A stretch of 64,000 nt of DNA from Candidatus Poribacteria bacterium (GTDB lineage Bacteria > Poribacteria > WGA-4E > PCPOR2b): the NCBI GenBank assembly GCA_965218095.1, contig OZ244587.1, positions 1,344,001 to 1,408,000 on the forward strand. Reading direction: 5' to 3'. Both the position numbers and the translations under genes were made by a program. Under the pieces are notes generated by a model that worked only from the letters and a program-made list of their open reading frames with translations, had not been told where the DNA came from and ran no database searches. Positions 3,465-52,357 of the stretch are shown piece after piece (within the stretch, counting starts at the first letter, position 1; every line of letters starts with the position of its first letter).

Positions 3465-4062
3465 AATACTTGAAACGTAAAACGTGATACCGGTACAATT
3501 GACGCAACAACAGTTCGAATCTCACATATTGCCCCATCTGTCGACTGCCAAACGCAGCTTCATTTCCCTAATTCCACTGTACAAAATCTTTAACTATATC
3601 CTCTACCTGCTACCTGCTATACACCGGCTGTCAATCGAAGCAATTGCCCATTGACACATGCGCAGATAACCCAGAAAAGTTTCAACCGGTTCCCCCTGAA
3701 CTCACTTTCTTCCTTCATCCTTCCTTTTCTTCCAATTTCCCTATTTCCTCATTTCCTCGTTTGCTTCATATCTTCATGGATCTCGGAAAGAAACTGCTCC
3801 GTCAGCACATGTACGCACTCCTGTGCTGCTGCTTCCACTGCCTTTCGGTGCTTATCATTCTGTTTTCTACTGCTCATTTCCCAACCTTCCTCTTACAGGA
3901 ATTGGACTATAGAGTTAAGTGTAGCAGAAACTGTGAAGTGTTGCAAGTAAAAATTGGCGCTCCCATAAACCAGTCGAAGATTTTGGCCGCATCCATTGAA
4001 TTTCACGAACATCTTTTGACTTCAGAATGTCTAATACATCTGCGAAACCGCTCAATTTGGAC

Positions 4063-4091
4063 TTGACACAAAAGTGGAATTTTGCTAAACT
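4063..4091 (+). promoter_or_regulatory. Sigma70 promoter upstream of the 4203 CDS
   Basis: TTGACA-17 nt-TAAACT. Confidence 0.6.
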
Positions 4092-4202
4092 CTGCCCCGT
4101 GCTTTCTGGAGTACCTAGACGCACGCCGCAAAAACGATCGTGCCCCGGGGGACAATGTCTACATTTCCAATTCTAAATCTTTATTGCATAAGGTAAATCA
4201 AT

Positions 4203-6452
4203 ATGCCCAGTGTAACCATCCACATCGGCAAACGCCTCAATCCACTTGAACAACGTGCGGTCAAAGAACTTCAGCACTACAGCCGGACGTTGTTCGGCTG
4301 CGTGCCGGAAGTTTCCAGGTGTCCGTTGAAAGGGGAACGCACCCGCGCCGGACATGCCATCGTGCTCGGCACTCGTCAATCCAATTCAGCCTTCGCGTCC
4401 TTCAAACCCCTTGCTGAGCAGGAGTACATCATTCGCCGCAGGTCCGCTCACCGCCTCGATATCTGTGGTGGTTCACCAGTGGCCGTTCTCTGGGGCGCCT
4501 ACGAAGTCATTGAGCATTGGGGCGTCAGTTATCTGGTGCAGGGCGATGTTCTTCCTGACATGGAGAAAGTCGGGCCATTTCGTTTCCCGAAGCTGGATGT
4601 GCATCGCAAGCCGGTCTTCGAAACTCGCGCCGCCCGCATCCTCGGCGACATGATCAACACCATGGCCCTGGGCAGCCTGGCAGACCATGAAAGACTTTTC
4701 GATCAGCTCTGCAAGTTGCGCTTCAACGCAGTGGTGGCTGGCGGGAACTCTTTCAACCCCTGGTATCACTGGTCGTACCGTGGTCTTGATAAGAAAACAG
4801 CGGACATCACCTACGGTTTTCGGCACGTCATACACCAGCGTTCCATCGGCAGGGAAGTTATCGGCCGTCTCGGCCACTACACAAACCCCGACCTTCAGGG
4901 CGCCGAGACTTACGAAGAAAAACTGGCAGCGGGCAAGCGACTGCTGCACGGCATCATTGAGGCGGCGCACAAGCGGGGTATCCGCGTCATTGTTTCACAC
5001 ACCCTCAGCGACTTCCCGGAGGAAATACAAGTTAACCTGCCACGCTGGAGTCAGAAACATTGCATCCCCCCCACTAGTATGACGCGGGATCACTTCCATA
5101 CGCTCGGACTGCAGCGAGATGGCACCGCTTATCGATTCGGCCATCTGATGACGCCGCTGAATCCGGTGTATGTGGACATGGTCGAATCCATCCTGTCCGC
5201 GTTTATAGGGGAGTATCCGGAGATGGATGGCTGGTCCCTGACCGGTCATGAGTGGCCGCCCGGCGCCGGAGGCATCGAAGAATGCTGGCACCAACTGGAT
5301 CGGCGTCATGGGCTCAGTCCAGAGTTCACTTACGAAAAGCTGATAAAAAAAGCCTCGCGTTTGAAAATCAGTGGGAGCGCCGACCGAGCCGTTCATGCAG
5401 CACAGGGTGCCATCGCGACCAGCCGGCTGCTCGACCTCATCCTCAACGAGCGCAAAGTTATCAGCAGAATACTTTCGCCAAACGTAAAACTCTATGGAGG
5501 TTTAAATGAGACCCTGATGCCTGTTCTGCCGCGCATTTTTGACAGCGAGCGGCTGGAGTTCGTCGCATCAATGGATGTGTTACCTTCGGATGTGGAACGC
5601 CGCTCCGAGTCCCTCGCGTTTGCAGCCAATACTGGCTTCAAGACACACCTAGTCACGGTCATCAACGACGATAACACCGGATTCATACCCCAGTTCACAA
5701 CGAAGATTCTTCACAAAACGGTCCGGGCGATGCGAAAGTATGGTCTTGTTGGATACCGGTTTCGGCTCTACGATATGAGCAAGTATGAGCCGATAATGGG
5801 CTACATGGCCGAAACTAGCTGGGACCGGACAGCGACACCGAAGAAGACTTACACCCGACAAATCGAGCGCATCTGCGGCGAAGCCGCTGTAGAGCCCATT
5901 CGCAAGGCTTACATGATGCTTGAAAACTGTATGGATGACGTTGATGCCAGCTTTGGCACAGGCTTCATGATGCCCACATTGATGACTCGTTTCTGGCATG
6001 GCTTTGATAAATCCGAAGCCTGGAAGAGATTGATTAAAAAGTTTGGCGCGATTGCGCCTCTCCTTGAACAGGGGGTCGAGCTCAGCGAGCCACGGGGCAA
6101 ACAATACGCGGGCGACATGCTGGCTTTTGTGCGGTTTGCTCAATTGTATCTTGAGATGGCTTTGTGCGTTCTCCAGGCCGGCAGAAGCTACAGTGCCGTG
6201 CACGAAATGAAGCGCAACTGGGACAGAAAAGAGCCCTTTGATATGGACATTTGCAACCAGCACTACGAAGAGGCCGTCCAAAGCTTGGACGAAGCTCTTG
6301 GCACTTTGGAGCAGGCCACTCACGTCTGGGCCGATACCGTGCGCGACGCCTCCGACCTCGGTTCGCTCATCGGACTTAATGTCTACGGCCTGGACTGGCT
6401 GCGCGGTAAAGCCGATGAAATCCGGTTGGAATCGGAGCTTTGGAGTATGTAA
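4203..6452 (+). CDS. Putative glycoside hydrolase (GH20b/GH67-type N-terminal domain plus TIM-barrel-like core)
   Basis: 749 aa ORF; N-terminal AVKELQHY..IVLG..QEYIIR..ICGGSPVAVLWGAYEVIEHWG..PVFETR pattern typical of GH20b-like domains; family not assignable. Confidence 0.5.
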   Translation: MPSVTIHIGKRLNPLEQRAVKELQHYSRTLFGCVPEVSRCPLKGERTRAGHAIVLGTRQSNSAFASFKPLAEQEYIIRRRSAHRLDICGGSPVAVLWGAYEVIEHWGVSYLVQGDVLPDMEKVGPFRFPKLDVHRKPVFETRAARILGDMINTMALGSLADHERLFDQLCKLRFNAVVAGGNSFNPWYHWSYRGLDKKTADITYGFRHVIHQRSIGREVIGRLGHYTNPDLQGAETYEEKLAAGKRLLHGIIEAAHKRGIRVIVSHTLSDFPEEIQVNLPRWSQKHCIPPTSMTRDHFHTLGLQRDGTAYRFGHLMTPLNPVYVDMVESILSAFIGEYPEMDGWSLTGHEWPPGAGGIEECWHQLDRRHGLSPEFTYEKLIKKASRLKISGSADRAVHAAQGAIATSRLLDLILNERKVISRILSPNVKLYGGLNETLMPVLPRIFDSERLEFVASMDVLPSDVERRSESLAFAANTGFKTHLVTVINDDNTGFIPQFTTKILHKTVRAMRKYGLVGYRFRLYDMSKYEPIMGYMAETSWDRTATPKKTYTRQIERICGEAAVEPIRKAYMMLENCMDDVDASFGTGFMMPTLMTRFWHGFDKSEAWKRLIKKFGAIAPLLEQGVELSEPRGKQYAGDMLAFVRFAQLYLEMALCVLQAGRSYSAVHEMKRNWDRKEPFDMDICNQHYEEAVQSLDEALGTLEQATHVWADTVRDASDLGSLIGLNVYGLDWLRGKADEIRLESELWSM

Positions 6453-15901: not shown

Positions 15902-16000
15902 TTAAAAGGGCTTGCCACTAAAGATGATATTAACCGAATAGAAACAAAACTAGAAGCACTTAATCAGAATTTTATTGACCATTTGAAAGGACACCCCTAA
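15902..16000 (+). pseudogene. 3' fragment of a small TM/coiled-coil cassette gene (paralog of 33067-33246)
   Basis: LKGLATKDDINRIETKLEALNQNFIDHLKGHP* versus RGLATKDDINRIERKLEALNQNFIDHLKGHA*. Confidence 0.75.
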
Positions 16001-16052
16001 CTCTCTAACGAAGTGAGATCCCGATTTATCGGGACCTTACGGAGGATTTACC

Positions 16053-16970
16053 ATGAAATGCACCATGTCGGTTTCGATCCCGATCTTATCGGGGCTCGTT
16101 TTGACAATTCTGTTTGTTTTCCCTGTGATTGGGTTCTCGGAACTTACCGAGAAAGACTTAGAGAAAATCCAACAAATCGTTCAATCTGAAGTGAATACCA
16201 TCAAGCAAGACATAACAGAAGTTGAACTCCGATTAATTGAGAAGATACGTGAATCGGAGAATCGGCTTCAATCTCAATTTAACGTTGCTCTGGATAACCG
16301 AACCAACGACATCATGATAATCTTTGCCGTAGTTTCTATGGGGTTCTTCCTTCTGTTCGGTTGCATCCTACTAGTTGGCGCATTGCGAAACCGTCAGCCT
16401 AAATTGCGAAACCGTCAGCCTAACAAGAAACTTATCATTCTTATGATGATTAGCCTCGCCGGTGCGTTGCTATGTCGAGTACCTCCCATCAATGCACAGC
16501 CAGATAGGTTTTTTGGAGATATTGTCTGTACTCGGTTAACTGTCTTGAATCGAAATCAAAGAGAAGTCGTGAGCATATTTCCCTATGGGGATGATGGTGG
16601 AAGTATTCAGATTCACGGGAAGCCGGGACAACGCGCTGTCATGGGCACCGATGGGGATGGCGGACAGGTCTTACTTAGAGGCAAGCATGGTGATGTTAGC
16701 ATATACACCGATGGACAGGGTGGACGACTTAATATTTCCTCTAGTAAGTCTGGGAAAGCTACCATGCTAATCAATGAGTATGGTGGAAGCATTAGTCTTA
16801 GTCAAACAAGTAAAATAAGTCGCGAACAGGGCATACTAGATGGTATAAATGAACCTGGGGATTTGCGGCTAGTAGACCCACGAGGACATGAAAGAATGTT
16901 CATAGGGGTAGATGAAGATGGAAACGGCGTAATAGCAAAATGGGACAAGAACGGGTATCGTCTCAAATGA
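16053..16970 (+). CDS. Membrane protein with conserved N-terminus and variable Gly-rich beta C-terminus (paralog of 33264-34016)
   Basis: GGAGG RBS; first about 155 aa highly similar to the 33264 ORF; 21-bp tandem duplication at 16382-16423 (LRNRQPK-LRNRQPN). Confidence 0.8.
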   Translation: MKCTMSVSIPILSGLVLTILFVFPVIGFSELTEKDLEKIQQIVQSEVNTIKQDITEVELRLIEKIRESENRLQSQFNVALDNRTNDIMIIFAVVSMGFFLLFGCILLVGALRNRQPKLRNRQPNKKLIILMMISLAGALLCRVPPINAQPDRFFGDIVCTRLTVLNRNQREVVSIFPYGDDGGSIQIHGKPGQRAVMGTDGDGGQVLLRGKHGDVSIYTDGQGGRLNISSSKSGKATMLINEYGGSISLSQTSKISREQGILDGINEPGDLRLVDPRGHERMFIGVDEDGNGVIAKWDKNGYRLK

Positions 16971-17077
16971 TAGAAATCGTTGGAACCCTCTTAGCCCTGA
17001 TAATCGGCTTGATTTTGGCTTCACTCGGTTGGGGCTGTTGGGACTTAATTTTGAAAACTTGGAAATTTTACCGATAG
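16967..17077 (+). CDS. Small single-TM peptide (36 aa)
   Basis: ATGA overlap with the upstream gene; MIEIVGTLLALIIGLILASLGWGCWDLILKTWKFYR; second copy at 34733. Confidence 0.55.
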   Translation: MIEIVGTLLALIIGLILASLGWGCWDLILKTWKFYR

Positions 17078-17126
17078 AAACACTTAACCTACGGCGGATC
17101 TAACAATATCAAGCAACCCTTACCCT

Positions 17127-18060: not shown

Positions 18061-18224
18061 TAGGTGCATTTACGAAAAGCCAGTTTGAATATATCATTAC
18101 CTTACCTAAAAGGTTGAGCGAGTGGGCAAAGGGGTGAGACAAGGACAGGAAGAAGGTAGGACAGGAAGAAGGTAGGAAAGGGAAGGGATGGTAGAATGGA
18201 AGGAGAGGAAGAATTTCCCGCAAC

Positions 18225-18415
18225 ACGCATAAGGATAGCCCGCACCGTAATGAATGCTCAATTCATAGAGTCCCCCATCAAGATGCCGATGGTCTCCAAG
18301 ATTTCCACGACGGACACGAGGAATCCTGTCAAGTATCTTAGTTGGTTTGTAAGTCGGGCTGTGGGAGTGGCGAGGATAACACCGCCACATTTCGCCTTTC
18401 CGTTTGAAATGGTCA
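18225..18415 (-). pseudogene. RelE/HigB-like addiction-module toxin remnant
   Basis: KILDRIPRVRRGNLGDHRHLDGGLYELSIHYGAGY matches the GN.GD....G..ELRI..G.GYR toxin pattern; no intact start and no antitoxin. Confidence 0.65.
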
Positions 18416-18450: not shown

Positions 18451-18723
18451 CTATTCCCCCTCGATAAGTTCACCGGCCTTCTTTTTGAAGGCAATCGCGC
18501 TTCGTGAAACCTCGACTTTCACATTTTCTGCGATTATTAGCACGACAATATCTTTGTCCACGCCCACAATTTTTCCATGTAAGCCACCCGTCGTGACGAC
18601 TTCATCTGCCTTTGACAGATTGCTCAGCATGTTCTGATGTTTTTTCCGTTTAAGCTGTTCAGGGCGCAAGATCAGAAAGTAGAAGATTGGTATCATCAGA
18701 AGAATCGGAATGAAAGCCTCCAT
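18451..18723 (-). CDS. yajC: Preprotein translocase subunit YajC
   Basis: FYFLILRPEQ..K.HQ.ML..L...DEVVTTGGLHGKI. Confidence 0.93.
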   Translation of the reverse strand: MEAFIPILLMIPIFYFLILRPEQLKRKKHQNMLSNLSKADEVVTTGGLHGKIVGVDKDIVVLIIAENVKVEVSRSAIAFKKKAGELIEGE

Positions 18724-22870: not shown

Positions 22871-22989
22871 TTCCCGGCAGCGACCTACTTTCCCACGAAG
22901 TTACCCTCGAAGTATCATCAGCGCTGAAGGGCTTAACTGCCGTGTTCGGAATGAGTACGGGTGTTTCCCCTTCGCTATTGCCACCGGAA
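22871..22989 (-). rRNA. rrf: 5S rRNA
   Basis: Minus strand ..CCGGTGGCAATAGCG..CACCCG.ACTCATTCCGAAC..GAAAGTAGGTCGCTGCCGG; ends approximate. Confidence 0.95.
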
Positions 22990-23065
22990 AAATATGCTAA
23001 ATTCTTCCAAAAGAAATATATTTGACAATTATATAGATTTGAATATGACAGCTATATGTAATTAA

Positions 23066-26084
<3,019 letters not shown>

Positions 26085-26149
26085 AGTTCTTTAGAAGCCG
26101 ATAATTCAAATCTATACAATTGTCAAAGATCTAAAGCTGTCATGCTTAG

Positions 26150-26223
26150 TGGAGATGAGCGGAGTCGAACCGCTGGCCTCCCCGTTGCAAACGGGGTGCT
26201 CTCCCAAACTGAGCTACACCCCC
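26150..26223 (-). tRNA. tRNA-Ala(TGC)
   Basis: GGGGGTGTAGCTCAG...CCCCG-TT-TGC-AA-CGGGG...GGTTCGACTCC...CATCTCCA; G3:U70 pair; CCA not encoded. Confidence 0.95.
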
Positions 26224-26232
26224 ACATAGAGA

Positions 26233-26309
26233 TGGTAGGCTTATCTGGAATCGAACCAGAGACCTCGCGCTTATCAGGCGCGCGCTCTAACCACCTGAGC
26301 TATAAGCCC
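26233..26309 (-). tRNA. tRNA-Ile(GAT)
   Basis: GGGCTTATAGCTCAGGTGGTTAGAGCG..CT-GAT-AA..GGTTCGATTCC..TAAGCCTACCA. Confidence 0.96.
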
Positions 26310-26413
26310 CTATAATAAATTAAAGATGCTTGCTAGAAAGCTAAATAGAATTCTGACATGTACATCAACGAGCGTGGGTATATCAATTTCGCTTAAAAGC
26401 TATATACCCTGCA

Positions 26414-27993
<1,580 letters not shown>

Positions 27994-31491: not shown

Positions 31492-32370
31492 TTATGCCTC
31501 CTTCACTCTTTGAATTGCACCGTTTAAGGCGCGACGTGTCAACACACCGACAAGATGCGTTCTTTGTTCCGCCGTTCCACGCATATCACTGATTGGACGC
31601 GCAATAGCCTGCGCCGCTTCAGCAGCACTGTTGATCGCTTCATCGGAAACTTCCTTTCCAGCAAGCGATGCGCCGGCTTCTTCAGCAAACAGCGGTGTTG
31701 GCGCGACAGCGGCAAGCGAGATTCGTGCCGAAACAAACGATGTTTTCGCGTCGTCCAGAACGACTGCCGCACCGGCGCCGACAACAGCAATGTCCATTTC
31801 ATTGCGTGGGATAAAACGGAGGTAATAAGAACTTGAATTTTTCTGCGGTGGGGGAACTTTGAATGATACGAGAAATTCTCCCCTTTCCAGGACAGTTTGC
31901 CCCGGTCCCGTGCAGAACTGCTCTACAGAGACTTCGCGCGGCGATCCATTTGGGCCGGCAATGACACAAATGGCTCCCAGCACTATCAACGGCGGTATCG
32001 TATCCGCAGCGGGAGAGGCATTACACAGATTACCGCCAACACTTGCCCTACCTTGAATTCCGGTACCACCAATAATCTTAGCAGCATCAATCAGTCCAGG
32101 GTATGCGGCAGAGATTGCATCGTCCGCATAGATTTTATAACAGGGAACAGCCGCACCGAGGCTTAAACCGGTGTCAGGGGAATATGAAAGCACGTTGGTT
32201 TCAGAGAGGTCTTTGATGTCTACCATCCGTTCCAACTGCCGCCGGTTCTCCCGAACCATAACGATGAGATCTGTTCCGCCGGCCAAGGGCTTTGCTTGAT
32301 CGCCTTTTTCGGCGAGCAAGGAGGCCGCTTCAGCTACGGTTTTTGCGGGAACATATTCAAACGCTCGCAA
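31492..32370 (-). CDS. FAD-binding subunit of the xanthine dehydrogenase family enzyme
   Basis: LAGGTDL, ASVGGNLCNASPAAD, PISDMRGT. Confidence 0.93.
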   Translation of the reverse strand: MRAFEYVPAKTVAEAASLLAEKGDQAKPLAGGTDLIVMVRENRRQLERMVDIKDLSETNVLSYSPDTGLSLGAAVPCYKIYADDAISAAYPGLIDAAKIIGGTGIQGRASVGGNLCNASPAADTIPPLIVLGAICVIAGPNGSPREVSVEQFCTGPGQTVLERGEFLVSFKVPPPQKNSSSYYLRFIPRNEMDIAVVGAGAAVVLDDAKTSFVSARISLAAVAPTPLFAEEAGASLAGKEVSDEAINSAAEAAQAIARPISDMRGTAEQRTHLVGVLTRRALNGAIQRVKEA

Positions 32371-32580
32371 AGCATCAATCTCCTTTCAAGATGAGAGGGG
32401 TTACTCGCCAAGCTTCACAGCCTTACATGAACATCTCCAAAAACTTGGCAAATGTTTATTACACACTTTATCTTAATCGAAAGCATCGGAAATGTCAACC
32501 GAAAAGATCTCTACCCCGCTCGGGGAAACTTTTAATCCAGGGCGAGGCATTAAAAAAAGGGAATTATATCGAATAGTGCC

Positions 32581-32640
32581 ATTTATTTGGCATTTAGAAT
32601 GCCAAATAAATTTGACACTATAGCAGTAGTTTGGTATCAT
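32581..32640 (+). promoter_or_regulatory. Element-borne sigma70 promoter with an adjacent perfect palindrome
   Basis: ATTTATTTGGCATT-tag-AATGCCAAATAAAT (32581-32611) abuts TTGACA(32612)-17 nt-TATCAT(32635). Confidence 0.8.
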
Positions 32641-32677
32641 CGCACCAAATGTGTCAATGTACATAGGGAGGTCTAAA

Positions 32678-32770
32678 ATGGATGCGAAAATTAGAGCAGA
32701 ACTTGATGAAATTCGTGAGATGTTAGCCGAAGCAGCTAGACTTTTTCTACGAAAATTGGGTACAATATAA
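32678..32770 (+). CDS. Leader small protein (30 aa, amphipathic helix), possibly truncated
   Basis: GGAGG RBS; MDAKIRAELDEIREMLAEAARLFLRKLGTI; first 20 codons repeated at 35686. Confidence 0.5.
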   Translation: MDAKIRAELDEIREMLAEAARLFLRKLGTI

Positions 32771-32803
32771 GCACCAAACCCTTATCTACACGGAGGATCT
32801 ACG

Positions 32804-33049
32804 ATGGTTACTTGGATTCCAAGTCTGGTGACGAGTGGTATCGTGGTTATTGTTACAGTTGGATCAGTAATTATTTCTATGCGGATTCAACTTGCTAAAT
32901 TAGAATCTAAGTTTGATACTAAGTTTGAATCTGTAGAGAAAGACATTAACAGATTAGAAGCAAAGATTGATGGTATCAACCAGACATTAGGTGCTAAGAT
33001 TGATAACGTTAATCAACACATTGACCGTCATCTTGAGAATCATTCCTAA
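32804..33049 (+). CDS. Small N-terminal TM plus coiled-coil protein ending HLENHS
   Basis: GGAGG RBS in junction motif; hydrophobic residues about 4-25, then heptad repeats. Confidence 0.75.
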   Translation: MVTWIPSLVTSGIVVIVTVGSVIISMRIQLAKLESKFDTKFESVEKDINRLEAKIDGINQTLGAKIDNVNQHIDRHLENHS

Positions 33050-33066
33050 CCTACGGAGGATTTACC

Positions 33067-33246
33067 ATGACTAGCCCTCAAATTCTGATGGCGTTGATTC
33101 TGCTCATCTTGAATGGCGTAATCACTGTCGTAGCCGTTCTTACCTTCACCAGAGGACTGGCTACTAAAGATGATATTAACCGGATAGAAAGGAAACTCGA
33201 AGCACTTAACCAGAATTTCATTGACCATCTGAAAGGACACGCTTAA
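33067..33246 (+). CDS. Small N-terminal TM plus coiled-coil protein ending HLKGHA (59 aa, below ORF-track cutoff)
   Basis: MTSPQILMALILLILNGVITVVAVLTFTRGLATKDDINRIERKLEALNQNFIDHLKGHA; flanked by junction motifs; paralogous fragment at 15902. Confidence 0.75.
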   Translation: MTSPQILMALILLILNGVITVVAVLTFTRGLATKDDINRIERKLEALNQNFIDHLKGHA

Positions 33247-33263
33247 CCTACGGAGGATCTATC

Positions 33264-34016
33264 ATGAAATGCACCATGTCGGTTTCGATCCCGATCTTAT
33301 CGGGGCTCGTTTTGACAATTTTGTTTGTTTTCCCTGTTCTTACATTCTCGGAACTTACCGAGAAAGACTTAGAGAAAATCCGAAAAATCGTTCAATCTGA
33401 AGTGAATACCATCAAGCAAGACATAACAGAAGTTGAACTCCGATTAATTGAGAAGATACGTGAATCGGAGAATCGGCTTCAAACACAATTTAATCAATCA
33501 CTGGATAACCGAACCAACAGTATCATGATTATCTTTGCTGTCGTTTCTATGGGGTTCTTCCTTCTGTTCGGTTGCATTCTACTGGTCGGTGCATTACGAA
33601 ACCGTCAGCCTAACAAGAAACTCATCATCCTTATGGTGGTTAGCCTCGCCGGTGTAATGCTTTGCCGCATCCCTTCGCTCAATGCCCAAAAGGATAGGTT
33701 TGGTGAGGACATTGTTTGTAGAAGTTTAACTGTTATTGATGACGAAGGCAAAAATGCGATTGTCTTAGAAAGTAATGAAGATGAGAAATCAAATCAGATT
33801 ATCATTTATGAACCACATCAAAAACGTGCAAATGTTGCTGGGATAAATAAGGAGCCTGAAAACTGGAAAAAAGAGGCAATTAGATTAGAGGCTAAAAAAG
33901 ATTATTCTTGGTTTTCTGTCCAAGATAGGGAAGATCCTAGCTACGCGGCGTTTTGGATTTTTAGTGATAAAGACTACAATTATTCATCACGGCGGATACG
34001 TGGAAAAGCAGAGTAG
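33264..34016 (+). CDS. Membrane protein with conserved N-terminus and variable C-terminus (paralog of 16053-16970)
   Basis: Signal/TM, coiled coil and two further hydrophobic helices; diverges from its paralog after DIVC..LTV. Confidence 0.8.
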   Translation: MKCTMSVSIPILSGLVLTILFVFPVLTFSELTEKDLEKIRKIVQSEVNTIKQDITEVELRLIEKIRESENRLQTQFNQSLDNRTNSIMIIFAVVSMGFFLLFGCILLVGALRNRQPNKKLIILMVVSLAGVMLCRIPSLNAQKDRFGEDIVCRSLTVIDDEGKNAIVLESNEDEKSNQIIIYEPHQKRANVAGINKEPENWKKEAIRLEAKKDYSWFSVQDREDPSYAAFWIFSDKDYNYSSRRIRGKAE

Positions 34017-34077
34017 CAGATTGGTAAGGAGAATCACTTAAAAGCCTGAAAGACTAACCTATAGGAGGTTTTGAAAA

Positions 34078-34257
34078 ATGCCCTCATCTGTTTATCATGC
34101 AGTCGTTAGGCAAAAAGGCAACTGGTGGATTGGTTGGATTCAGGAAATTCCGGGTGTAAATTGTCAAGAACAGACTCGCGAAGAACTAATAGATACACTT
34201 GAAACTGCACCGAAAGAGTACGCACTTATAAGATTTAGACTTGAAATTAAGGCTTGA
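34078..34257 (+). CDS. HicB-like antitoxin (short or truncated, no HicA partner)
   Basis: YHAVVRQKGNWWIGWIQEIPGVNCQEQTREELIDTL is a HicB N-terminal pattern; AGGAGG RBS. Confidence 0.7.
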   Translation: MPSSVYHAVVRQKGNWWIGWIQEIPGVNCQEQTREELIDTLETAPKEYALIRFRLEIKA

Positions 34258-34315
34258 ACTTTGTTTGAAAATCTGATAAAATATAGTCTCAAATCCGCAT
34301 AAATAAAGGAGTTGA

Positions 34316-34648
34316 GTGGCTATGATTCAGATAAGTCGTCAAGCAAAGCTGGTTTGGAAAGATGCCGTTGAAAATGGCATCAAGTTTAAGATTATTGAGC
34401 AGGATGCCAAGTTAGAACCGAATTATGATGGCATGAAAGTTGGTGATGCCTCAACACTGTGTGTAGTCGAAGATATTAAATCTCGATATAAGGGACAAAT
34501 TAACCGATATGAAGGTGAGATAACACGATTAGTTATCTTCCGAACTCGGCTTGAAGAATTGTTGTCTATGCTCAGTGAATATCCGGTTGATGAGACAAAT
34601 CGAGACTTGATTAAGAGATGTATCGAGAAATTAGATGGGAAACTGTGA
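34316..34648 (+). CDS. Hypothetical protein (110 aa), cargo
   Basis: AAGGAG RBS before GTG; clean ORF inside the element. Confidence 0.6.
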   Translation: MAMIQISRQAKLVWKDAVENGIKFKIIEQDAKLEPNYDGMKVGDASTLCVVEDIKSRYKGQINRYEGEITRLVIFRTRLEELLSMLSEYPVDETNRDLIKRCIEKLDGKL

Positions 34649-34732
34649 TAAAGAGTTAGCCCAACCCATTGGCTACGTGGCTTCCAAATCGGTTTCGATC
34701 CCGATCAGATCGGGGCAGGAAAACAATTCCCA

Positions 34733-34912
34733 ATGATAGAAATCGTTGAAACCCTCTTAGTCCTGATAACTGGTTTAATTTTGGCTTCACTCGGTTGGGG
34801 CTGTCGGGACTTAATTGTGAAAGGAGGCTATTATGACTTGGATGACCCTTGGCCAAATCGGAGCGATTATTGTATCACCGGCGGTCATGCTTTATATCGC
34901 CACGATGATTAA
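34733..34912 (+). CDS. Small single-TM peptide, paralog of 16967-17077
   Basis: MIEIVETLLVLITGLILASLGWGCRDLIVK...; DNA similarity of 34732-34822 to 16966-17056. Confidence 0.45.
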   Translation: MIEIVETLLVLITGLILASLGWGCRDLIVKGGYYDLDDPWPNRSDYCITGGHALYRHDD

Positions 34913-35078
34913 CAAACGAATTGATGATTTGAAATCGAAGATGGATTCAGACCATGCGAACCTTGCGAAAATGGTAGAGGGAGTTCGTCAAGAGGTAAAA
35001 GATGTTCGCAACCATTTTGACAAGAGGCTTGATACTCCGAGCACCATTTTATCCTTTAAGGAGAGCAATTTCCAATGA
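34833..35078 (+). CDS. Small N-terminal TM plus coiled-coil protein
   Basis: AGGAGG RBS; LGQIGAIIVSPAVMLYIATMI then INKRIDDLKSKMD heptads. Confidence 0.7.
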   Translation: MTWMTLGQIGAIIVSPAVMLYIATMINKRIDDLKSKMDSDHANLAKMVEGVRQEVKDVRNHFDKRLDTPSTILSFKESNFQ

Positions 35079-35245
35079 AAAAGAAACAGACCCTTCGCAA
35101 ACGTTCTTCCAAAGACAAGATTATCAAATCTATCAAGGACACGCCGGAGAATGTGGCAAGAGCATTGTTCGGTATGAAGTCCACCCGCCAACCTAAATCC
35201 AAATCGCGAAAAAATGGAAGTGCCGAAATCTATGATTATCCGTAA
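35075..35245 (+). CDS. Small basic protein with DTPENVARALF motif next to the right end
   Basis: AAGGAG RBS and ATGA overlap; 56 aa, K/R-rich; ends 5 nt before IRR. Confidence 0.55.
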   Translation: MKKKQTLRKRSSKDKIIKSIKDTPENVARALFGMKSTRQPKSKSRKNGSAEIYDYP

Positions 35246-35284
35246 GTTTCGGCACTATCCGATATAATTCCCTAAAAAAACACC

Positions 35285-35485
35285 TTATCCCCGGCAGATT
35301 ACATTTTGGCCCCCCCCCCCCCCCTTCCGTGATGACTTCGTAAGGGATGTCCAAATCATCCAGAATCTTGAGGTGCGATTTGGCGATTTCGTAAGTCTCG
35401 TCAGCGAAGCGGACGACACGCATTCGTTTCGCCGGCGCGACGAAACCTTCTCCCTCGCAGCGTCTGTAAATCTGATCTTTACCAT
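35285..35485 (-). pseudogene. Frameshifted small hypothetical gene containing a G15 tract
   Basis: GGAGG RBS, MVKIRFTDAAREK.. continuing in another frame as MRVVRFADETYEIAKSHLKILDDLDIPYEVITE. Confidence 0.35.
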
Positions 35486-35567
35486 CTGAGGGTGCCCTCC
35501 ATCCTTAGAGTCTATCCTAATCTTGCCTTTTTCTAAAAAATTTGCCAGCATCTACCGCATATTTTAT

Positions 35568-35744
35568 GGGAATTATATCAAATAGTGCCATTTTTTGGCA
35601 TTTAGAATGCCAAATAAATTTGACACTATGGCAGTAGTTTGGTATCATCGTATCAAATGTGTCAATGTACATAGGGATGTCTAAAATGGGTGCGAAAGTT
35701 AAAGCAGAACTTGATGAAATTCGTGAGATGTTAGCCGAAGCAGC
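35568..35744 (+). mobile_element. Second, truncated left end of the same element family
   Basis: 177-bp near-copy of 32559-32736 (IRL, palindrome, promoter, first 20 codons); no matching IRR seen. Confidence 0.85.
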
Positions 35745-36798
35745 AGAGATCTTGGGAAGCTATCGTACGAAATCTCTCAATAACCTCTGCGTGCGAAGCC
35801 GTGCCTGTTGTCCCAATCTTTGTCACCGTAATTGACGCGACGAGGTTTCCGACCTGCGCCGCTTCAACGTAGATGCTCCCATCCCGCCGAGAGGAACCGC
35901 AGAGCGTCGGCACAATGCCGGCCGAAACGCTATCCCCCGCTCCGACTGGATCTGTCTCTTGATCGAGCGGAATTCCCGGCACATGCTCAACCCGCCCATC
36001 GTAGAACACCAGAATTCCATGCTGACCGACAGTTACATAAACCGGCTTTCCTGTACGCTCTGCCAAGAGCCCCCCACACTGTTCTGCTTCCTCAATATCA
36101 ACTTCCTCACCCGTCCAATCCGGATTGACCGCCTGTTTTGCCTCAAATCGGTTTGGTTTGATAATAACGTGATAATACTTTCCCATCCGGCTGCGAGAAT
36201 CGGCAAAAAAGATCTTGTCGGGATATTTCACAGCAAGTCGGCAGATCTCCTCGCGCACCCGATCGGTGATGACCCCCCAATTGTCGTGCGGCATCTGATC
36301 CCCGACGATGACTCCTTCGACCATCGGCACACATTGATGGAGAGATCTGATCGCCATGTCCTCCACCTCAGATCGCATCGCTGATTGGTTTTCAACGTCG
36401 AATCGAGGTCCCTCCGTCTCCACGCCTTCGTAGCCACGATGGATGGGTTTGAGATAGGTCGGCGTAATGCAGTCCGGCGCGGAGATCATAAACTCCGTGA
36501 TGCACCCATTCGCCTCCAAGCAGTCAAGCAGAGTTCTGCCAAACCCATCCTCACCGATCACGCCCAGTGTGTAAACTTCTCCAACCTCTAACGCCCTGAG
36601 ATTGTTTGTCACTGTCCCCGCCGCACCAGGGCTATAGCGTTGACCCATGACAGGATTTGTGTACCAGGGGGTTTCCAGCGATAGAGTCGATTTCGTTTTG
36701 TCAATCAGCCAGTAGGCGTCGAGGTAAAAATCTCCAACAACCAGGATTTTTCGCTCTCTAAATCCCTCCAGAACGGTTTTTAGACACTCTTCGTTCAT
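35731..36798 (-). CDS. PfkB-family sugar kinase (HldE/RfaE kinase domain-like)
   Basis: ILVVGDFYLD.Y, PGAAGTV..NL, IKPNRFEA, DPVGAGDS. Confidence 0.85.
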   Translation of the reverse strand: MNEECLKTVLEGFRERKILVVGDFYLDAYWLIDKTKSTLSLETPWYTNPVMGQRYSPGAAGTVTNNLRALEVGEVYTLGVIGEDGFGRTLLDCLEANGCITEFMISAPDCITPTYLKPIHRGYEGVETEGPRFDVENQSAMRSEVEDMAIRSLHQCVPMVEGVIVGDQMPHDNWGVITDRVREEICRLAVKYPDKIFFADSRSRMGKYYHVIIKPNRFEAKQAVNPDWTGEEVDIEEAEQCGGLLAERTGKPVYVTVGQHGILVFYDGRVEHVPGIPLDQETDPVGAGDSVSAGIVPTLCGSSRRDGSIYVEAAQVGNLVASITVTKIGTTGTASHAEVIERFRTIASQDLCCFG

Positions 36799-37163
36799 CG
36801 CATCCCCTCTTTCATTTTACATTTCACGCCTAGTGTACCAAAGATTAACGCCATGATCAAATGAATTCGGATCGGGAGGGAAACCGTTCCCCGATAAGAT
36901 CGGGATGCAAAGGACTTGACCTTGACCCGATCTTGTGGTAAACTCGATTGAACTGATGTCGTATGCTACCCGTCCGTTAGGGTGTAAAATCGAAAGTGGG
37001 ATAATCCACTTGCCCCATTCGTTGATGTAAATATCCACACTACTGATGATAAATGGATTAATGTATCTTTTCTGATAGATTTGGGTGCGGACGGAACATA
37101 CTTGCCAAGTGAGTACATGGAAGATCTCGGTATCCAGTTCAACCGCAGAAGTCTGGAGTTCAG

Positions 37164-37703
37164 ATGGCGCTGTTTCTGCCTGCCCTGCTGCCCTGCGAGC
37201 GGTGGTGGATGGACGCGACAATCATCATGGGCAAGCGCAACCATTTCCGGTTCAGGCTAACCGATGAATTCGGGCTGCGATCACACTACCGTGACCCCGG
37301 CGAATTTGACAGTGAACTTGAGCGACGTTTTGCAACGCAGTTTGAGCAAGTCGAGACAGAGTGGACATTAGAACGTGAGACGGACATCATCAATCTCAAG
37401 GATACGGTGATGATTCCGGATTTCGCGTTCTCGCATCCCGACGGGCGGCAGGCGTTGATGGAGATCGTCGGATTCTGGATGCCGGATTACCTCCAGAAGA
37501 AGCTATGGAAACTGAAACAGGCGGGCATGCCCAACATGATCATCGCTGTGTCGGAGCAGTTGAACTGTTCGGCTGACGATTTTCGGGACATTGCCGGCGA
37601 GGTGCTGTTTTTCAAAACGCGGATTAAGCCGAAAGACGTACTGGAAAAGGTAGAAGGGTGTGCGATTTTGGAAGGGAAGTGTTCGATTGAAGATCAAGGA
37701 TAG
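37164..37703 (+). pseudogene. DUF790 (Bax1-like) endonuclease, C-terminal part only
   Basis: MALFLPALL, FDSELERRFA, W.LERE..I.L..TVMIPDFAF.H.DG...MEIVGFW.PDYL.KKL; N-terminal half missing. Confidence 0.7.
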
Positions 37704-49838: not shown

Positions 49839-49913
49839 GTATGGATAGGTAGATTCCTTGCGGAATTTTCTCCCCATCAGAACCGTGCGTGCGACTTTCA
49901 TCGCACACAGCTC
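49839..49913 (-). ncRNA. Group II intron remnant: domains V and VI with the 3' splice end
   Basis: Minus strand GAGCTGTGT-GCGAT-GAAA-GTCGC-AC-GCACGGTTC (AGC triad, GNRA loop, AC bulge), then DVI GATGGGGAGA..ATTCC-GCAA-GGAAT..CTACCTATCCATAC ending in AY. Confidence 0.85.
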
Positions 49914-49984
49914 GCATTGTCAATTACTGATTATCCTATACCGATAATGCTCACCTTCTGGTAAAATAGGCTGTCTAGCTATAT

Positions 49985-51093
49985 GAGGGGTGTGCATAAA
50001 TATAGTTGACATAATCAAGCCAAAAGGGTTTCCTATTGTTATCATAGCAAAAGGAGCCCCAATATGGTACAAAGACCAATGTTGGCTGATTATGTCACTC
50101 TTATTATGCAACTCTTTGAGCAGTTTATGCAACACCGTATTGACAAACCAGGTGTCACACACGCAAAACCATTGACATATTCAACCACCTCGTTTATCAT
50201 TTTCTTCATGTTGATGCAGTTTCACGGCATCTATGGCTTCAAAACGCAATGGCGGTGGCTAATCAATCACCCAGAAGTGTTACAAATGCTGGGGTGGCAA
50301 CAGCCCCCTCATCGAACCACGATTGCACGTCGCTATAAGGCATTATATGAAGTGATAGAGGCATTTGTATTGTTTATCGGTCAGTATGCCACTGACTTGT
50401 CCCAACAATTCAACTTGGCTCATCTGGTAGCCGACAAAAGTTTATTTAAGGCACGAGGACCCGTCTGGCATCAAACTGACCGCAAAGCAGGAAAAGTACC
50501 TAAACATCTACGCAACCTCGACACCGATGCCACGTGGAGCAAGAGTGGTTATCATGGCTGGGTCTATGGCTACGGACTTCACATTATCTGCACACAAGGT
50601 GCGTTCCCAACACTGATAACTGTGCACCGTGCGTCGGTCTCCGAAAGTTGGGCGATAGATGCTAAAGCGTCTGAGATTCTGACACAACTTTCACCGCAGA
50701 CACTCACTGCCGATGATGCCTATACCCAAGCAGACCGTATCCGTCGTTGGGCGAAGGCACAAGTCGCTTTGATTACCCCGGCACTTAGATGGACAAAGGG
50801 ACGGTTTGCCAAGGCGTATCATCGATTTATCAACCAACCCAAGCAGCGTCTCTGTTTAAGCAAACGTCGCAGTTCGGTTGAACCGTTGTTTGACTTGATT
50901 GCTAAAGTGATAGGCACCACTCCTCAACAGAAGCAGTTACCGGTCAAGGGGTTTTTCAATGTACGCTGTTGTTTAGCTATCGGGGTGTTATCAGTGCAAG
51001 TGGCTATGATTGCCAATGCCATATGGAAGTTACCTGCTCGCAATATCTCTCATATGGCGGCTGTTTTCCAATGAACTACTATGCACACCCCTC
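49985..51093 (+). mobile_element. Complete insertion sequence (DDE, IS4/IS5/IS982 clan), 1109 bp
   Basis: 14-bp perfect IR GAGGGGTGTGCATA; 8-bp target duplication AGCTATAT at 49977-49984 and 51094-51101. Confidence 0.9.
50064..51074 (+). CDS. DDE transposase
   Basis: PHRTTIARR, VADKSLF, DTDATW..GWVYGYGLH, TADDAY, RRSSVEPLF. Confidence 0.88.
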   Translation: MVQRPMLADYVTLIMQLFEQFMQHRIDKPGVTHAKPLTYSTTSFIIFFMLMQFHGIYGFKTQWRWLINHPEVLQMLGWQQPPHRTTIARRYKALYEVIEAFVLFIGQYATDLSQQFNLAHLVADKSLFKARGPVWHQTDRKAGKVPKHLRNLDTDATWSKSGYHGWVYGYGLHIICTQGAFPTLITVHRASVSESWAIDAKASEILTQLSPQTLTADDAYTQADRIRRWAKAQVALITPALRWTKGRFAKAYHRFINQPKQRLCLSKRRSSVEPLFDLIAKVIGTTPQQKQLPVKGFFNVRCCLAIGVLSVQVAMIANAIWKLPARNISHMAAVFQ

Positions 51094-51224
51094 AGCTATA
51101 TTGCATTATGTTACCCAGAAACGCATTGTAATCTCCCATGAGTCGATAATTTTATACCTGAACTTACCCCCATCCTTTAGACAGAAATGAATGAGATTTA
51201 AGATAGCCAATCGGGTCAACTCGG

Positions 51225-52060
51225 TCAAGTGTAAACGCCTGAAATTACTGGAAATACACCCCGTGCGGTGTTCGATAGTCGAGCGATTGATGAAACCGCT
51301 GTTGATTGTAAAAGTTGAAATAGTCTCTCAATCAACGCCAAGTATGTGGTAACTGAGTCATAGTTGTTGAGATAAACCTCCTCATACTTGACACTCCGCC
51401 AGAGACGCTCAATGAAGATGTTGTCAAAAACTCTGCCTCTGCTGTCCCAACTGATGGCAATCTGAACCACTTCAAGTCGAGCTGTAAAAGCATCAGAAGT
51501 AAATTGACTGCCTTGGTCGTTGTTGAATATCAAGGGGCTCGATTGGGTAAGTGCCCGTTCGAGAGCCGACAGACAAAAGCATACGTCTAGTGAGTTTGAA
51601 AGTTCCCACGACAACACGTAACGGGAAAACCAATCCATAACCGCTACCAGATAAACAAAACCATGACTCAAGCGAATATAGGTTATATCCGTTGCCCAGA
51701 CCGGGTTCGGTCTGATGATACTTAATCCCTTCAGTAGATAGGGATACATCTTCGACGGTTTGGCTATACCCGAGGGCTTGGGCTTCGGATAGATGGCAGC
51801 CAATCCCATCTTTCGCATCAACCGAGCCACCCGTTTCCGATTGACGACATGCCCTTGGGAACGAAGCCATACAGTCAATCGAGGGACTCCATAGAACGGT
51901 GTCTAGGTGTACTGCTCATCTATCAAACGCATATAGAGCAGATTGTGTGGCGACTCGCCTACAGGTCGGTAATAGAACGAGGCACAGACCCAGCAGTTCG
52001 CATTGTCTGACAACTGACGGTGAACGGCACGTCTTTTCAATAGCTGTCGATTCTGTTCAA
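51225..52060 (-). pseudogene. IS3 OrfB integrase-core transposase, disrupted
   Basis: VNRKRVARLMR.MGL, WATDITYI, DQGSQFT, DNIFIERLWRSVKYE; in-frame TAG near 51904 and frameshifts. Confidence 0.85.
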
Positions 52061-52357
52061 CGGAGGAGTTGAGTTTTTTTGAAGCCAGTCGAGTTCCACC
52101 TTCAACTGTCCGATTTGGCGATAGAGTTCAGATGCTAGCTGTTCATTGTCGGTGGCTGCTTTTGAGCGTCCGTTTGTAAAGAGTTGCGGTAATTCTTCAA
52201 GCACCTGCTTTTTCCATTGGCTGACTTGAGTCGGGTAGACCCCATATTTACTGGCAATCTGAGCGACGGTTTGTTGATTTTTTATCGCCTCAATAGCCAC
52301 CTGTGCTTTGAATCTGCCATCGTACTGTTTTCTGCTGTTTTCTACGGAACATGGCAT
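52037..52357 (-). CDS. IS3 OrfA (helix-turn-helix)
   Basis: FKAQVAIEA...TVAQIASKYGV.P.QV.QWK, LY.QIGQLKVELDWLQK with an A-run frameshift site. Confidence 0.85.
   Translation of the reverse strand: MPCSVENSRKQYDGRFKAQVAIEAIKNQQTVAQIASKYGVYPTQVSQWKKQVLEELPQLFTNGRSKAATDNEQLASELYRQIGQLKVELDWLQKNSTPPLNRIDSY

Follow-up and report, generated by a model that had tools for sequence, protein, structure and literature searches.

A transposase-less IS1595-family derivative carrying nine same-strand open reading frames in a Candidatus Poribacteria contig, probably a mobile insertion cassette

What kind of mobile unit occupies positions 32559-35272 of the 64,000-nucleotide stretch analyzed here (hereafter the window), which covers positions 1,344,001 to 1,408,000 of contig OZ244587.1 in the Candidatus Poribacteria assembly GCA_965218095.1? 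This segment of 2,714 bp, as read directly, is bounded by 22-bp inverted repeats (IRs), carries nine open reading frames (ORFs) on one strand and lacks a transposase gene. We propose, with a probability of about 0.8, that it is a non-autonomous derivative of the insertion sequence (IS) family IS1595 and belongs to a known kind of element, the mobile insertion cassette (MIC). PMC3129680 defines MICs, solo IRs and passenger-carrying "transporter IS", and the structural features of a MIC are all present in the window: the IRs are of IS type and flanked by direct repeats, and they enclose passenger genes but no transposase.

According to this proposal, the two IRs have been kept and would presumably be recognized by the transposases of this IS clade. 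The element would have inserted into an AT-rich intergenic site, producing the 8-bp duplication typical of the family, and an operon of about 2.6 kb on a single strand would stand in place of the transposase gene. Of the predicted products, o2, o3 and o8 are small membrane-anchored proteins with coiled coils, o4 is a membrane protein of three helices that ends in a variable tail of beta repeats, o7 is a peptide with a single helix, and o1, o5, o6 and o9 are small and soluble. Movement would require a cognate IS1595 transposase supplied in trans. This mobilization, the activity of the promoter, transcription as an operon and a role of the cargo in the envelope or at the cell surface are inferred.

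The initial annotation had described 22-bp IRs differing at a single position and a perfect 8-bp target-site duplication (TSD), TAAAAAAA, and direct reading bears both out. Three copies of the 22-mer were counted in the window when up to 3 mismatches were allowed, compared with 0.00 copies expected from 100 dinucleotide-preserving shuffles; the third copy, at 35568-35589, was absent from the earlier reading. The perfect 8-bp duplication is of the IS1595 type, and 12 related elements in other genomes likewise have identical 8-bp flanks. The GC content of the element is 0.401, compared with 0.515 in each flank and 0.483 in the whole window. Insertion into a gene was considered and rejected, as excision in silico restored no ORF over the junction, and the insertion is therefore intergenic.

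The assignment of these ends to IS1595 comes from comparison with other genomes. In a scan of 185,579 species genomes, with 20 of the 22 IR bases fixed and the two variable positions open, the same end was found at 40 loci (cited here by L numbers) in 26 assemblies from seven phyla, namely Pseudomonadota (Alpha- and Gammaproteobacteria), Chloroflexota (including Dehalococcoidia), Candidatus Binatota, Rhodothermota, Acidobacteriota, Gemmatimonadota and Candidatus Poribacteria. These phyla follow the record titles, with three of the lineages checked. Each locus is a fixed 8,000-nt contig chunk, and one element can span two of them. Identical 8-bp flanks pair the ends in 12 elements: four within one locus (L002, L004, L025 and L039), L031 when an ambiguous G is given to the IR, and seven that straddle two chunks (L008/L006, L011/L017, L003/L022, L009/L030, L026/L018, L033/L029 and L013/L028). 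Six of these seven pairs share a contig, and L013 and L028 lie on two contigs of one metagenome-assembled genome. One further element, located in L036, has a variant IR.

An IS1595 transposase is recognized by Pfam in 11 of the 12 paired elements. Ten contain the PF12762 (DDE_Tnp_IS1595) domain and share the IR of the window, exactly or with 1-2 mismatches (L002, L025, L031, L030, L028, L008/L006, L011/L017, L003/L022, L026/L018 and L033/L029); five of the ten also contain the PF12760 zinc ribbon, which is the only domain found in L004. When 72,556 plasmid records were compared with the intact 314-aa protein of L030, the identity of the closest IS1595 transposases did not exceed 42%. The same IR thus bounds 8-bp-duplicated elements encoding PF12762/PF12760 transposases in other genomes, which supports the IS1595-type ends proposed initially.

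No transposase was detected in the element itself. An IS1595 domain is found in none of the scanned window ORFs, which comprise a main set of 47 ORFs of at least 90 amino acids (aa) and 19 ORFs in and around the element. The window has 64 non-nested ORFs of at least 90 aa; of the 17 outside the main set, 11 are within the 19-ORF element set and six were unscanned (four within the rRNA operon, plus 18106-18390 and 18451-18723). When 11 IS1595 transposases of related loci were compared with the window by tblastn, the best E value was 0.07 and no match fell within the element. Neither a DDE transposase with an N-terminal zinc ribbon nor a remnant of one was found in the element or the window, and none of the nine cargo ORFs reaches a curated Pfam or NCBIfam cut-off. 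The absence of a transposase that had been noted at the outset is consistent with both the Pfam/NCBIfam scans and tblastn, and the element is thus a derivative, not an IS in its own right.

Within the family, the ends of the ISNwi1 sub-group have the consensus ggnnatTAT with 8-bp repeats, and the element tip GGGAATTAT fits it; a literature search on IS1595 sub-group names did not return this consensus. Likewise, no description of this element or IS clade was found in the literature on IS1595/ISNwi1 passenger genes, MICs and the IS of sponge symbionts. The accessible portion of PMC11410982 names only IS66 and IS1380, at virus-host recombination regions, and does not mention IS1595.

The ends of this clade are far better conserved than its transposases. 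The latter are 46-79% identical to one another at the related loci, whereas the exact IR is present in 30 of 52 copies detected there at up to 3 mismatches, with the left IR (IRL) of the window as the commonest form, and variation in more than two of the 52 is confined to positions 13 and 14. The 20 bases fixed in the search account for part of this conservation; the unconstrained partner ends are equally conserved. The common IR thus points to an old clade in which the ends are strongly conserved, and is no evidence of one recently spread IS. Alignment of the transposase-proximal ends further revealed a common plan, in which the 22-bp IR is followed by about 27 nt with TTGAC, then by GGCACTAT(A/T)AT, a ribosome-binding site and the start codon. 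The -10 box falls within GGCACTAT, an inverted copy of the inner IR segment, so that the transposase may be able to bind there and repress its own promoter. At the right end of the window element, GGCACT is kept at the same distance from the IR as in L004, L006, L028 and the mini-element of L038, and at nearly the distance seen in L030, and the -35 and -10 boxes are lost, which fits an origin from a transposase-bearing ancestor. At the left end, the motif GACACTATAG, which is similar to the sub-terminal GGCACTAT repeat of the relatives in a motif alignment, lies nine nucleotides further in and overlaps the element's own -35 box.

Transposase-less units also occur elsewhere in the clade. L039 from Thioalkalivibrio sp. 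HK1 (2689-4340; 1,652 bp) is the paired element that, like the one in the window, has no transposase; it is duplication-flanked and contains a single 497-aa ORF, the product of which is cysteine-rich with a signal-peptide-like start. The same genome contains related transposase-less cassettes at L032 (6585-7267) and L001 (4970-6172), one of which encodes a 172-aa relative; the cassette proteins have their N-terminus and C-terminal region in common, and their middles differ in length (497 vs 172 aa). In L005 (Chloroflexota), a 156-aa cysteine-rich ORF with a signal-peptide-like start lies between two IRs. Gene-free units are represented by 71-bp arrangements of IR, 27 nt and IR in L035 (7033-7103) and L038 (5202-5272), and by a 209-bp unit in L021 (2889-3097). 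By eye, the L035 spacer resembles the transposase-proximal spacer of L030.

The relatives carry passengers and nested IS on either strand, including IS4/5, IS3 and IS21 genes and a SocA/Panacea antitoxin domain. The 40 loci contain none of the window cargo at the DNA level, nor by tblastn at E < 0.1, and the element-by-element comparison thus bears out the initial expectation that cargo differs between family members. Several of these elements deserve mention in their own right. L011/L017 and L008/L006, from one Rhodospirillaceae assembly, have different 8-bp flanks, CAAAAAGT and GAAATTTA, and have in common a nested IS5-type gene and a 318-aa passenger; provided that the chunks adjoin, each measures 3,353 bp. 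A composite element thus seems to have transposed recently. In a Terriglobia IS1595 element, a SocA/Panacea passenger (L029 3285-3851, E = 8e-16) is followed by a 129-aa ORF, and this pair may represent toxin-antitoxin cargo. L034 (286-1454) has two IRs with unmatched flanks and a 345-aa ORF, which appears TnpB/OrfB-like at its start by eye and has no Pfam match.

The features of the window element, its truncated second copy and the cargo copy located near 16 kb are collected in Table 1.

Table 1. Positions of the element, its parts and related copies within the window.
Feature	Position	Strand	Remarks
Partial cargo copy without IRs	15907-17110	+	o3-like 3' part, 305-aa o4 paralogue with a different tail, o7-like gene, one junction motif
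Left TSD copy	32551-32558	.	8 bp, TAAAAAAA, same as 35273-35280
IRL, left terminal IR	32559-32580	+	GGGAATTATATCGAATAGTGCC
Hairpin	32581-32611	+	Perfect 14-bp stem, AT-rich, directly inside IRL
Sigma70-like promoter (predicted)	32612-32640	+	TTGACA-17 nt-TATCAT, upstream TG
o1	32678-32770	+	30-aa charged helical peptide; GGGAGG 8 nt upstream; no family match
o2	32804-33049	+	81 aa; N-terminal transmembrane helix and coiled coil; sub-threshold coiled-coil matches
o3	33067-33246	+	59 aa; N-terminal transmembrane helix and coiled coil; distant o2 paralogue
o4	33264-34016	+	250 aa; signal/transmembrane helix, long coiled coil, two transmembrane helices, beta-rich variable tail
o5	34078-34257	+	59 aa; possible HicB/UPF0150-like; no HicA-like ORF adjoining
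o6	34322-34648	+	108 aa from ATG (110 aa from GTG 34316); soluble; one homologue, 54% identity
o4-type 5'-end remnant	34684-34716	+	Direct repeat with 33274-33306; contains TCCCGAT-nnn-ATCGGG
o7	34733-34912	+	59 aa; single-transmembrane peptide; runs into o8; weak ribosome-binding site
o8	34833-35078	+	81 aa; N-terminal transmembrane helix and coiled coil; AAAGGAGG upstream; sub-threshold DUF7201 coiled-coil match
o9	35075-35245	+	56 aa; very basic (17 K+R); start overlaps o8 stop
Sub-terminal hairpin	35216-35260	+	AGTGCCGAAA...TTTCGGCACT; inner right IR and inverted partial copy; fold -23.7 kcal/mol, z = -5.2
IRR, right terminal IR	35251-35272	-	21/22 positions match IRL, one mismatch
Right TSD copy	35273-35280	.	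8 bp, TAAAAAAA
Solo left end of second copy	35568-35745	+	178 nt: IR, hairpin, promoter, first 23 o1 codons

The left end of the element combines a hairpin with a promoter-like site. The fold of 32559-32640 has an energy of -23.3 kcal/mol (z = -4.3), and a stem-forming repeat adjoining the IR was also seen, by eye in the end listing, in L001, L026, L037 and L039. The IR-adjacent hairpin probably shields the promoter from outside read-through. The promoter-like site matches the consensus at 11 of 12 positions and has the top score in 32300-35900, tied with its twin at 35620-35648; transcription would most likely start about 7 nt past the TATCAT box at 32635-32640. A near-consensus promoter-like site that reads into a one-strand ORF array, as described in the initial annotation, is thus present. 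This hairpin and promoter are shared by none of the 40 related loci, and in the window and these loci together the left-end promoter recurs only in the truncated second copy.

This second copy is a solo left end that starts 296 bp downstream of the element, is 95% identical to 32559-32736 and stops abruptly at 35745, at the 3' end of a minus-strand pfkB-type kinase gene. Its presence lends only indirect support to mobilization in trans. The 287 bp that separate it from the element contain a run of 15 C at 35310-35324, the sole window homopolymer that passes the cut-offs (at least 10 for C or G, at least 12 for A or T). It splits small minus-strand ORFs into two frames, and could be a slippage-prone tract or an assembly artefact.

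What does the element carry? The nine ORFs, of 30-250 aa, are arranged head to tail on the plus strand, and eight of them have a Shine-Dalgarno-like motif. Hydrophobic N-terminal windows are found in o2, o3, o7 and o8, and o4 has three hydrophobic segments, so that ORF and hydrophobicity analysis agrees with the earlier description of nine same-strand cargo ORFs including transmembrane and coiled-coil proteins. An alternative GTG start at 32651 would extend o1 to 39 aa. For o2, five homologues besides itself were found (56-97% identity); a PF27291 label is attached in the database to three of the six listed o2-type proteins, including that of the window, and this model is absent from the Pfam copy used. 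The last 30 codons of o3 recur at 15905-15994 with 93% amino-acid identity. The o7 paralogue near 16 kb has 36 aa, and 34732-34822 is 91% identical in nucleotides to 16966-17056.

Functional leads for the cargo are scarce. Pfam, NCBIfam, PHROGs and PADLOC give sub-threshold coiled-coil noise, and the Atlas gives unnamed clusters; a "releasin-like" Atlas row at 0.83 was below the level worth following and was dropped. For o5, the match to Pfam PF21748 (UPF0150-like; E = 0.016, 15.5 bits) lies below the 27.3-bit cut-off; PDB sequences gave nothing below E 0.1, and Foldseek with a poor AlphaFold2 model (pLDDT 58.7) gave nothing at E <= 0.001. The HicB label for o5, based on this sub-threshold match alone, is thus unproven. 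No lead was obtained for o6 from Pfam, NCBIfam, PHROG, PADLOC, the PDB (nothing below E = 0.1) or the Atlas, and neither the 40 loci nor the rest of the window yielded a homologue of o9. Our best guess is that the cargo may form a module of the envelope or cell surface, the outer portion of which changes rapidly.

For o4, the largest cargo protein, ten homologues besides itself were found, the sole named one being a "hypothetical protein [Candidatus Poribacteria bacterium]". Conservation among them extends over the first 150 residues, whereas their tails could not be aligned. Compared with its paralogue at 16053-16970, o4 has a ratio of non-synonymous to synonymous changes per site (pN/pS) of 0.25 over the first 150 codons, which indicates purifying selection. 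The AlphaFold2 model of o4 is poor (pLDDT 59.9). A profile of the o4 family matched 293 proteins at E <= 0.001 among 1.84 billion representatives. In most of these the match is to the second half of o4, which begins with the last membrane helix and continues with "FGDIVC.LTVVD..G" and beta repeats, and the matched part is their own N-terminus; this half is therefore a widespread stand-alone module. None of the 15 second-half proteins included in a scan of 22 proteins had a Pfam match above cut-off. A hidden Markov model built from 110 of these proteins recovered only o4, its paralogue and L018 1782-2195 (E = 1.4e-20) among the 5,032 ORFs of the window and the 40 loci. This last ORF is carried as a passenger by L026/L018, a poribacterial IS1595 element with the same IRs, and the module that it has in common with o4 is a membrane-anchored beta-repeat. 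The link between this IS clade and the o4-tail family thus recurs in Poribacteria.

Part of the cargo is also found near 16 kb, outside any such element. This copy is 80% identical in nucleotides to 33153-33733 and 91% to 34732-34822, and no IR was found at it within 3 mismatches, which indicates that the cargo is independent of this carrier. The copy is directly preceded by a truncated AAA-ATPase-like N-terminus (sub-threshold Pfam matches), and it interrupts an ATPase-like gene according to a reading of the downstream ORFs made partly by eye. The o4 paralogue contains a 21-nt duplication, and the o5-o6 block that lies between o4 and o7 in the element is missing. Two other contigs, of 4,430 nt and 5.3 Mb, each carry homologues of both o2 and o4; overall, the cargo family is narrow.

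A palindrome, TCCCGAT-nnn-ATCGGG, occurs at 16078-16094, 33289-33305, 34699-34715 and 36889-36905. Three copies lie in or beside o4-type gene starts, where they encode IPILSG, and the fourth is intergenic, upstream of the pfkB gene; a longer motif holds the palindrome at 16070, 33281 and 34691, and the core alone is present at 36889. The four sites give eight matches when each is counted on both strands, compared with 0.1 expected by chance on both strands, and may represent a repetitive extragenic palindrome (REP)-like repeat. A link to tRNA or attC was dropped, given that ARAGORN and Rfam show no tRNA and that one copy lies at an unrelated intergenic site.

How does the element compare with known systems? 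An example of a MIC is MIC231 of the IS231 group in Bacillus cereus, reportedly described by De Palmenaer et al. in 2004. Such MICs have IS-type IRs, a target duplication, a passenger coding sequence, no transposase and a presumed mobilization in trans in common with the window element. In contrast to MIC231, however, the ends belong to the IS1595 rather than the IS4/IS231 family, and the cargo is a nine-ORF operon with a promoter-like site rather than one or two genes. Passenger-carrying IS1595 elements count as "transporter IS" (Siguier, Gagnevin and Chandler, 2009, cited in PMC3129680). The relatives of this type (L002, L025, L030, L031 and others) have the same 22-bp ends and 8-bp duplications, but encode PF12762/PF12760 transposases in addition to passengers, whereas the window element has no transposase. 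The miniature inverted-repeat transposable elements and solo IRs of the clade (L035, L038 and L021) have the 22-bp ends in common, but are gene-free. Integron arrays are similar in that several short ORFs follow a single promoter on the same strand; in contrast, the window has no IntI in the scanned ORFs, no attI/attC sites and no sign of cassette-wise exchange. The only recurrent palindrome, TCCCGAT-nnn-ATCGGG, sits within coding starts and at the unrelated intergenic site, and is thus not an attC-like site.

The initial annotation had read the element as an integron-like expression platform, i.e. a standing chassis of IS ends and left promoter in which promoterless cassettes would be swapped. 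That one promoter reads into nine same-strand ORFs is in keeping with this idea, yet none of the 40 loci shares the left-end promoter or any cargo at the DNA level, the sole cargo link needed a family profile, and copies with this left end amount to one and a fraction. The junction TAACCTACGGAGGATyTAyCATGA, near-identical before o3 and o4 and present as a variant before o2, counts for cassettes as well; however, the junctions (17-24 nt) are ribosome-binding-site contexts of paralogous genes and also occur at the locus without IRs, with all four window occurrences of AACCTACGGAGGATyTA at up to 3 mismatches lying at the two cargo loci. Cargo that varies between family members, and the o5-o6 block that is present between o4 and o7 here and not in the 16-kb copy, could be taken as signs of exchange, but no integrase or other site-specific recombinase is encoded among the scanned ORFs, and the autonomous relatives carry passengers on both strands together with nested IS. 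The copy without IRs, the o4-type remnant at 34684-34716, which is probably a recombination scar, and the ribosome-binding-site junctions favour ordinary recombination among paralogues over cassette exchange at a defined site. The platform could not be upheld, given the lack of an integrase in the scanned ORFs, of an attC-like site and of the promoter in the 40 loci, and we consider it very improbable.

An even smaller chance is given to the view that the cargo cluster itself spreads, by recombination among paralogues or an unknown mechanism, and that its capture between IS ends is incidental. The partial copy directly downstream of the truncated ATPase-like N-terminus, the o4-type scar, the 21-nt duplication in the paralogue and the joint occurrence of o2 and o4 homologues on other contigs all fit such a view, but it leaves the intact IR pair and the perfect duplication around the whole cluster unexplained, and an o4-tail family member is carried by the same IR family in another poribacterial genome, so that the IS association recurs. 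More weight is due to decay in place: an autonomous passenger-carrying IS1595 element could have inserted once, lost its transposase on the spot and never moved as a cassette. The kept GGCACT at the right end, where the sequence changes exactly at the expected transposase -10 box, agrees with this, as do the lack of a transposase in the window and its presence in 11 of 12 paired relatives. Deletions nearby are evident from the solo left end cut at 35745. Against decay in place stands the very existence of this second left end with its o1 start, although its lost interior could have held a transposase. Moreover, the IRs are still identical at 21 of 22 positions, the duplication is perfect, and the clade does form transposase-less cassettes (the duplication-flanked L039 and the related L032 and L001). 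In-place decay is thus unlikely.

Several points also weigh against the MIC reading, beginning with that possible loss of the transposase in place. No cognate transposase was found within the 64-kb window, so that the element may be stranded, and the cargo near 16 kb, which has no IRs, shows that the IS ends are not its only spreading route. Both promoter and operon are predicted. Eight of the nine cargo proteins have no function-assigning match, and o5 has only its sub-threshold HicB-like one. Finally, the lengths of the seven straddling relatives presume that their 8,000-nt chunks are neighbours.

The surroundings of the element have undergone at least two rearrangements. The truncated solo left end supplies the final few codons of the pfkB-type kinase gene (35731-36798, minus strand), and the next gene (37164-37703) retains only a C-terminal portion of DUF790 (positions 222-386 of the 387 in the model). 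Further away, a group II intron fragment (49839-49915, minus strand; 77 nt, Rfam Intron_gpII model) lies beside an IS4/5-type DDE gene (50064-51074) and an IS3-type pair (51225-52357; HTH_Tnp_1 and rve), and 49839-52357 is thus a second cluster of mobile-element debris. A complete rRNA operon (22872-27993, minus strand; 16S, tRNA-Ile, tRNA-Ala, 23S and 5S) is located about 4.5 kb from the element and indicates that the window is chromosomal. By eye, the distal end of L018 seemed homologous to the left end of the element; the alignment shows nothing in common beyond the IR, and this homology was rejected.

Taken alone, the element is one more non-autonomous IS derivative. Its value lies mainly in correct annotation, where it flags a mobile insertion, a solo end and local rearrangements on a chromosome that is probably poribacterial. 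The clade around it is of wider interest, as IS1595 elements with near-frozen ends repeatedly haul passengers, and several transposase-less copies encode secreted or membrane proteins. The taxa that carry these ends are typical members of the microbiomes of marine sponges. Thioalkalivibrio sp. HK1, the one strain with a name, is discussed among sponge-associated sulfur oxidizers (PMC6081418). It is conceivable, if rather doubtful at present, that the clade acts as a shared cross-phylum gene shuttle in one habitat, the transposase-less derivatives of which would preferentially deliver promoter-equipped genes for secreted or membrane-anchored proteins. Candidates for such delivered genes are the window operon, the signal-peptide-like cysteine-rich proteins of L039, L032 and L005, and the beta-repeat membrane protein of L018. 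As the -35 box overlaps the sub-terminal motif that resembles a transposase site, the cargo promoter could even be under transposase control. If the pattern holds true in full genomes, these elements would provide a concrete means by which genes for the cell surface spread and diversify among symbionts that live together.

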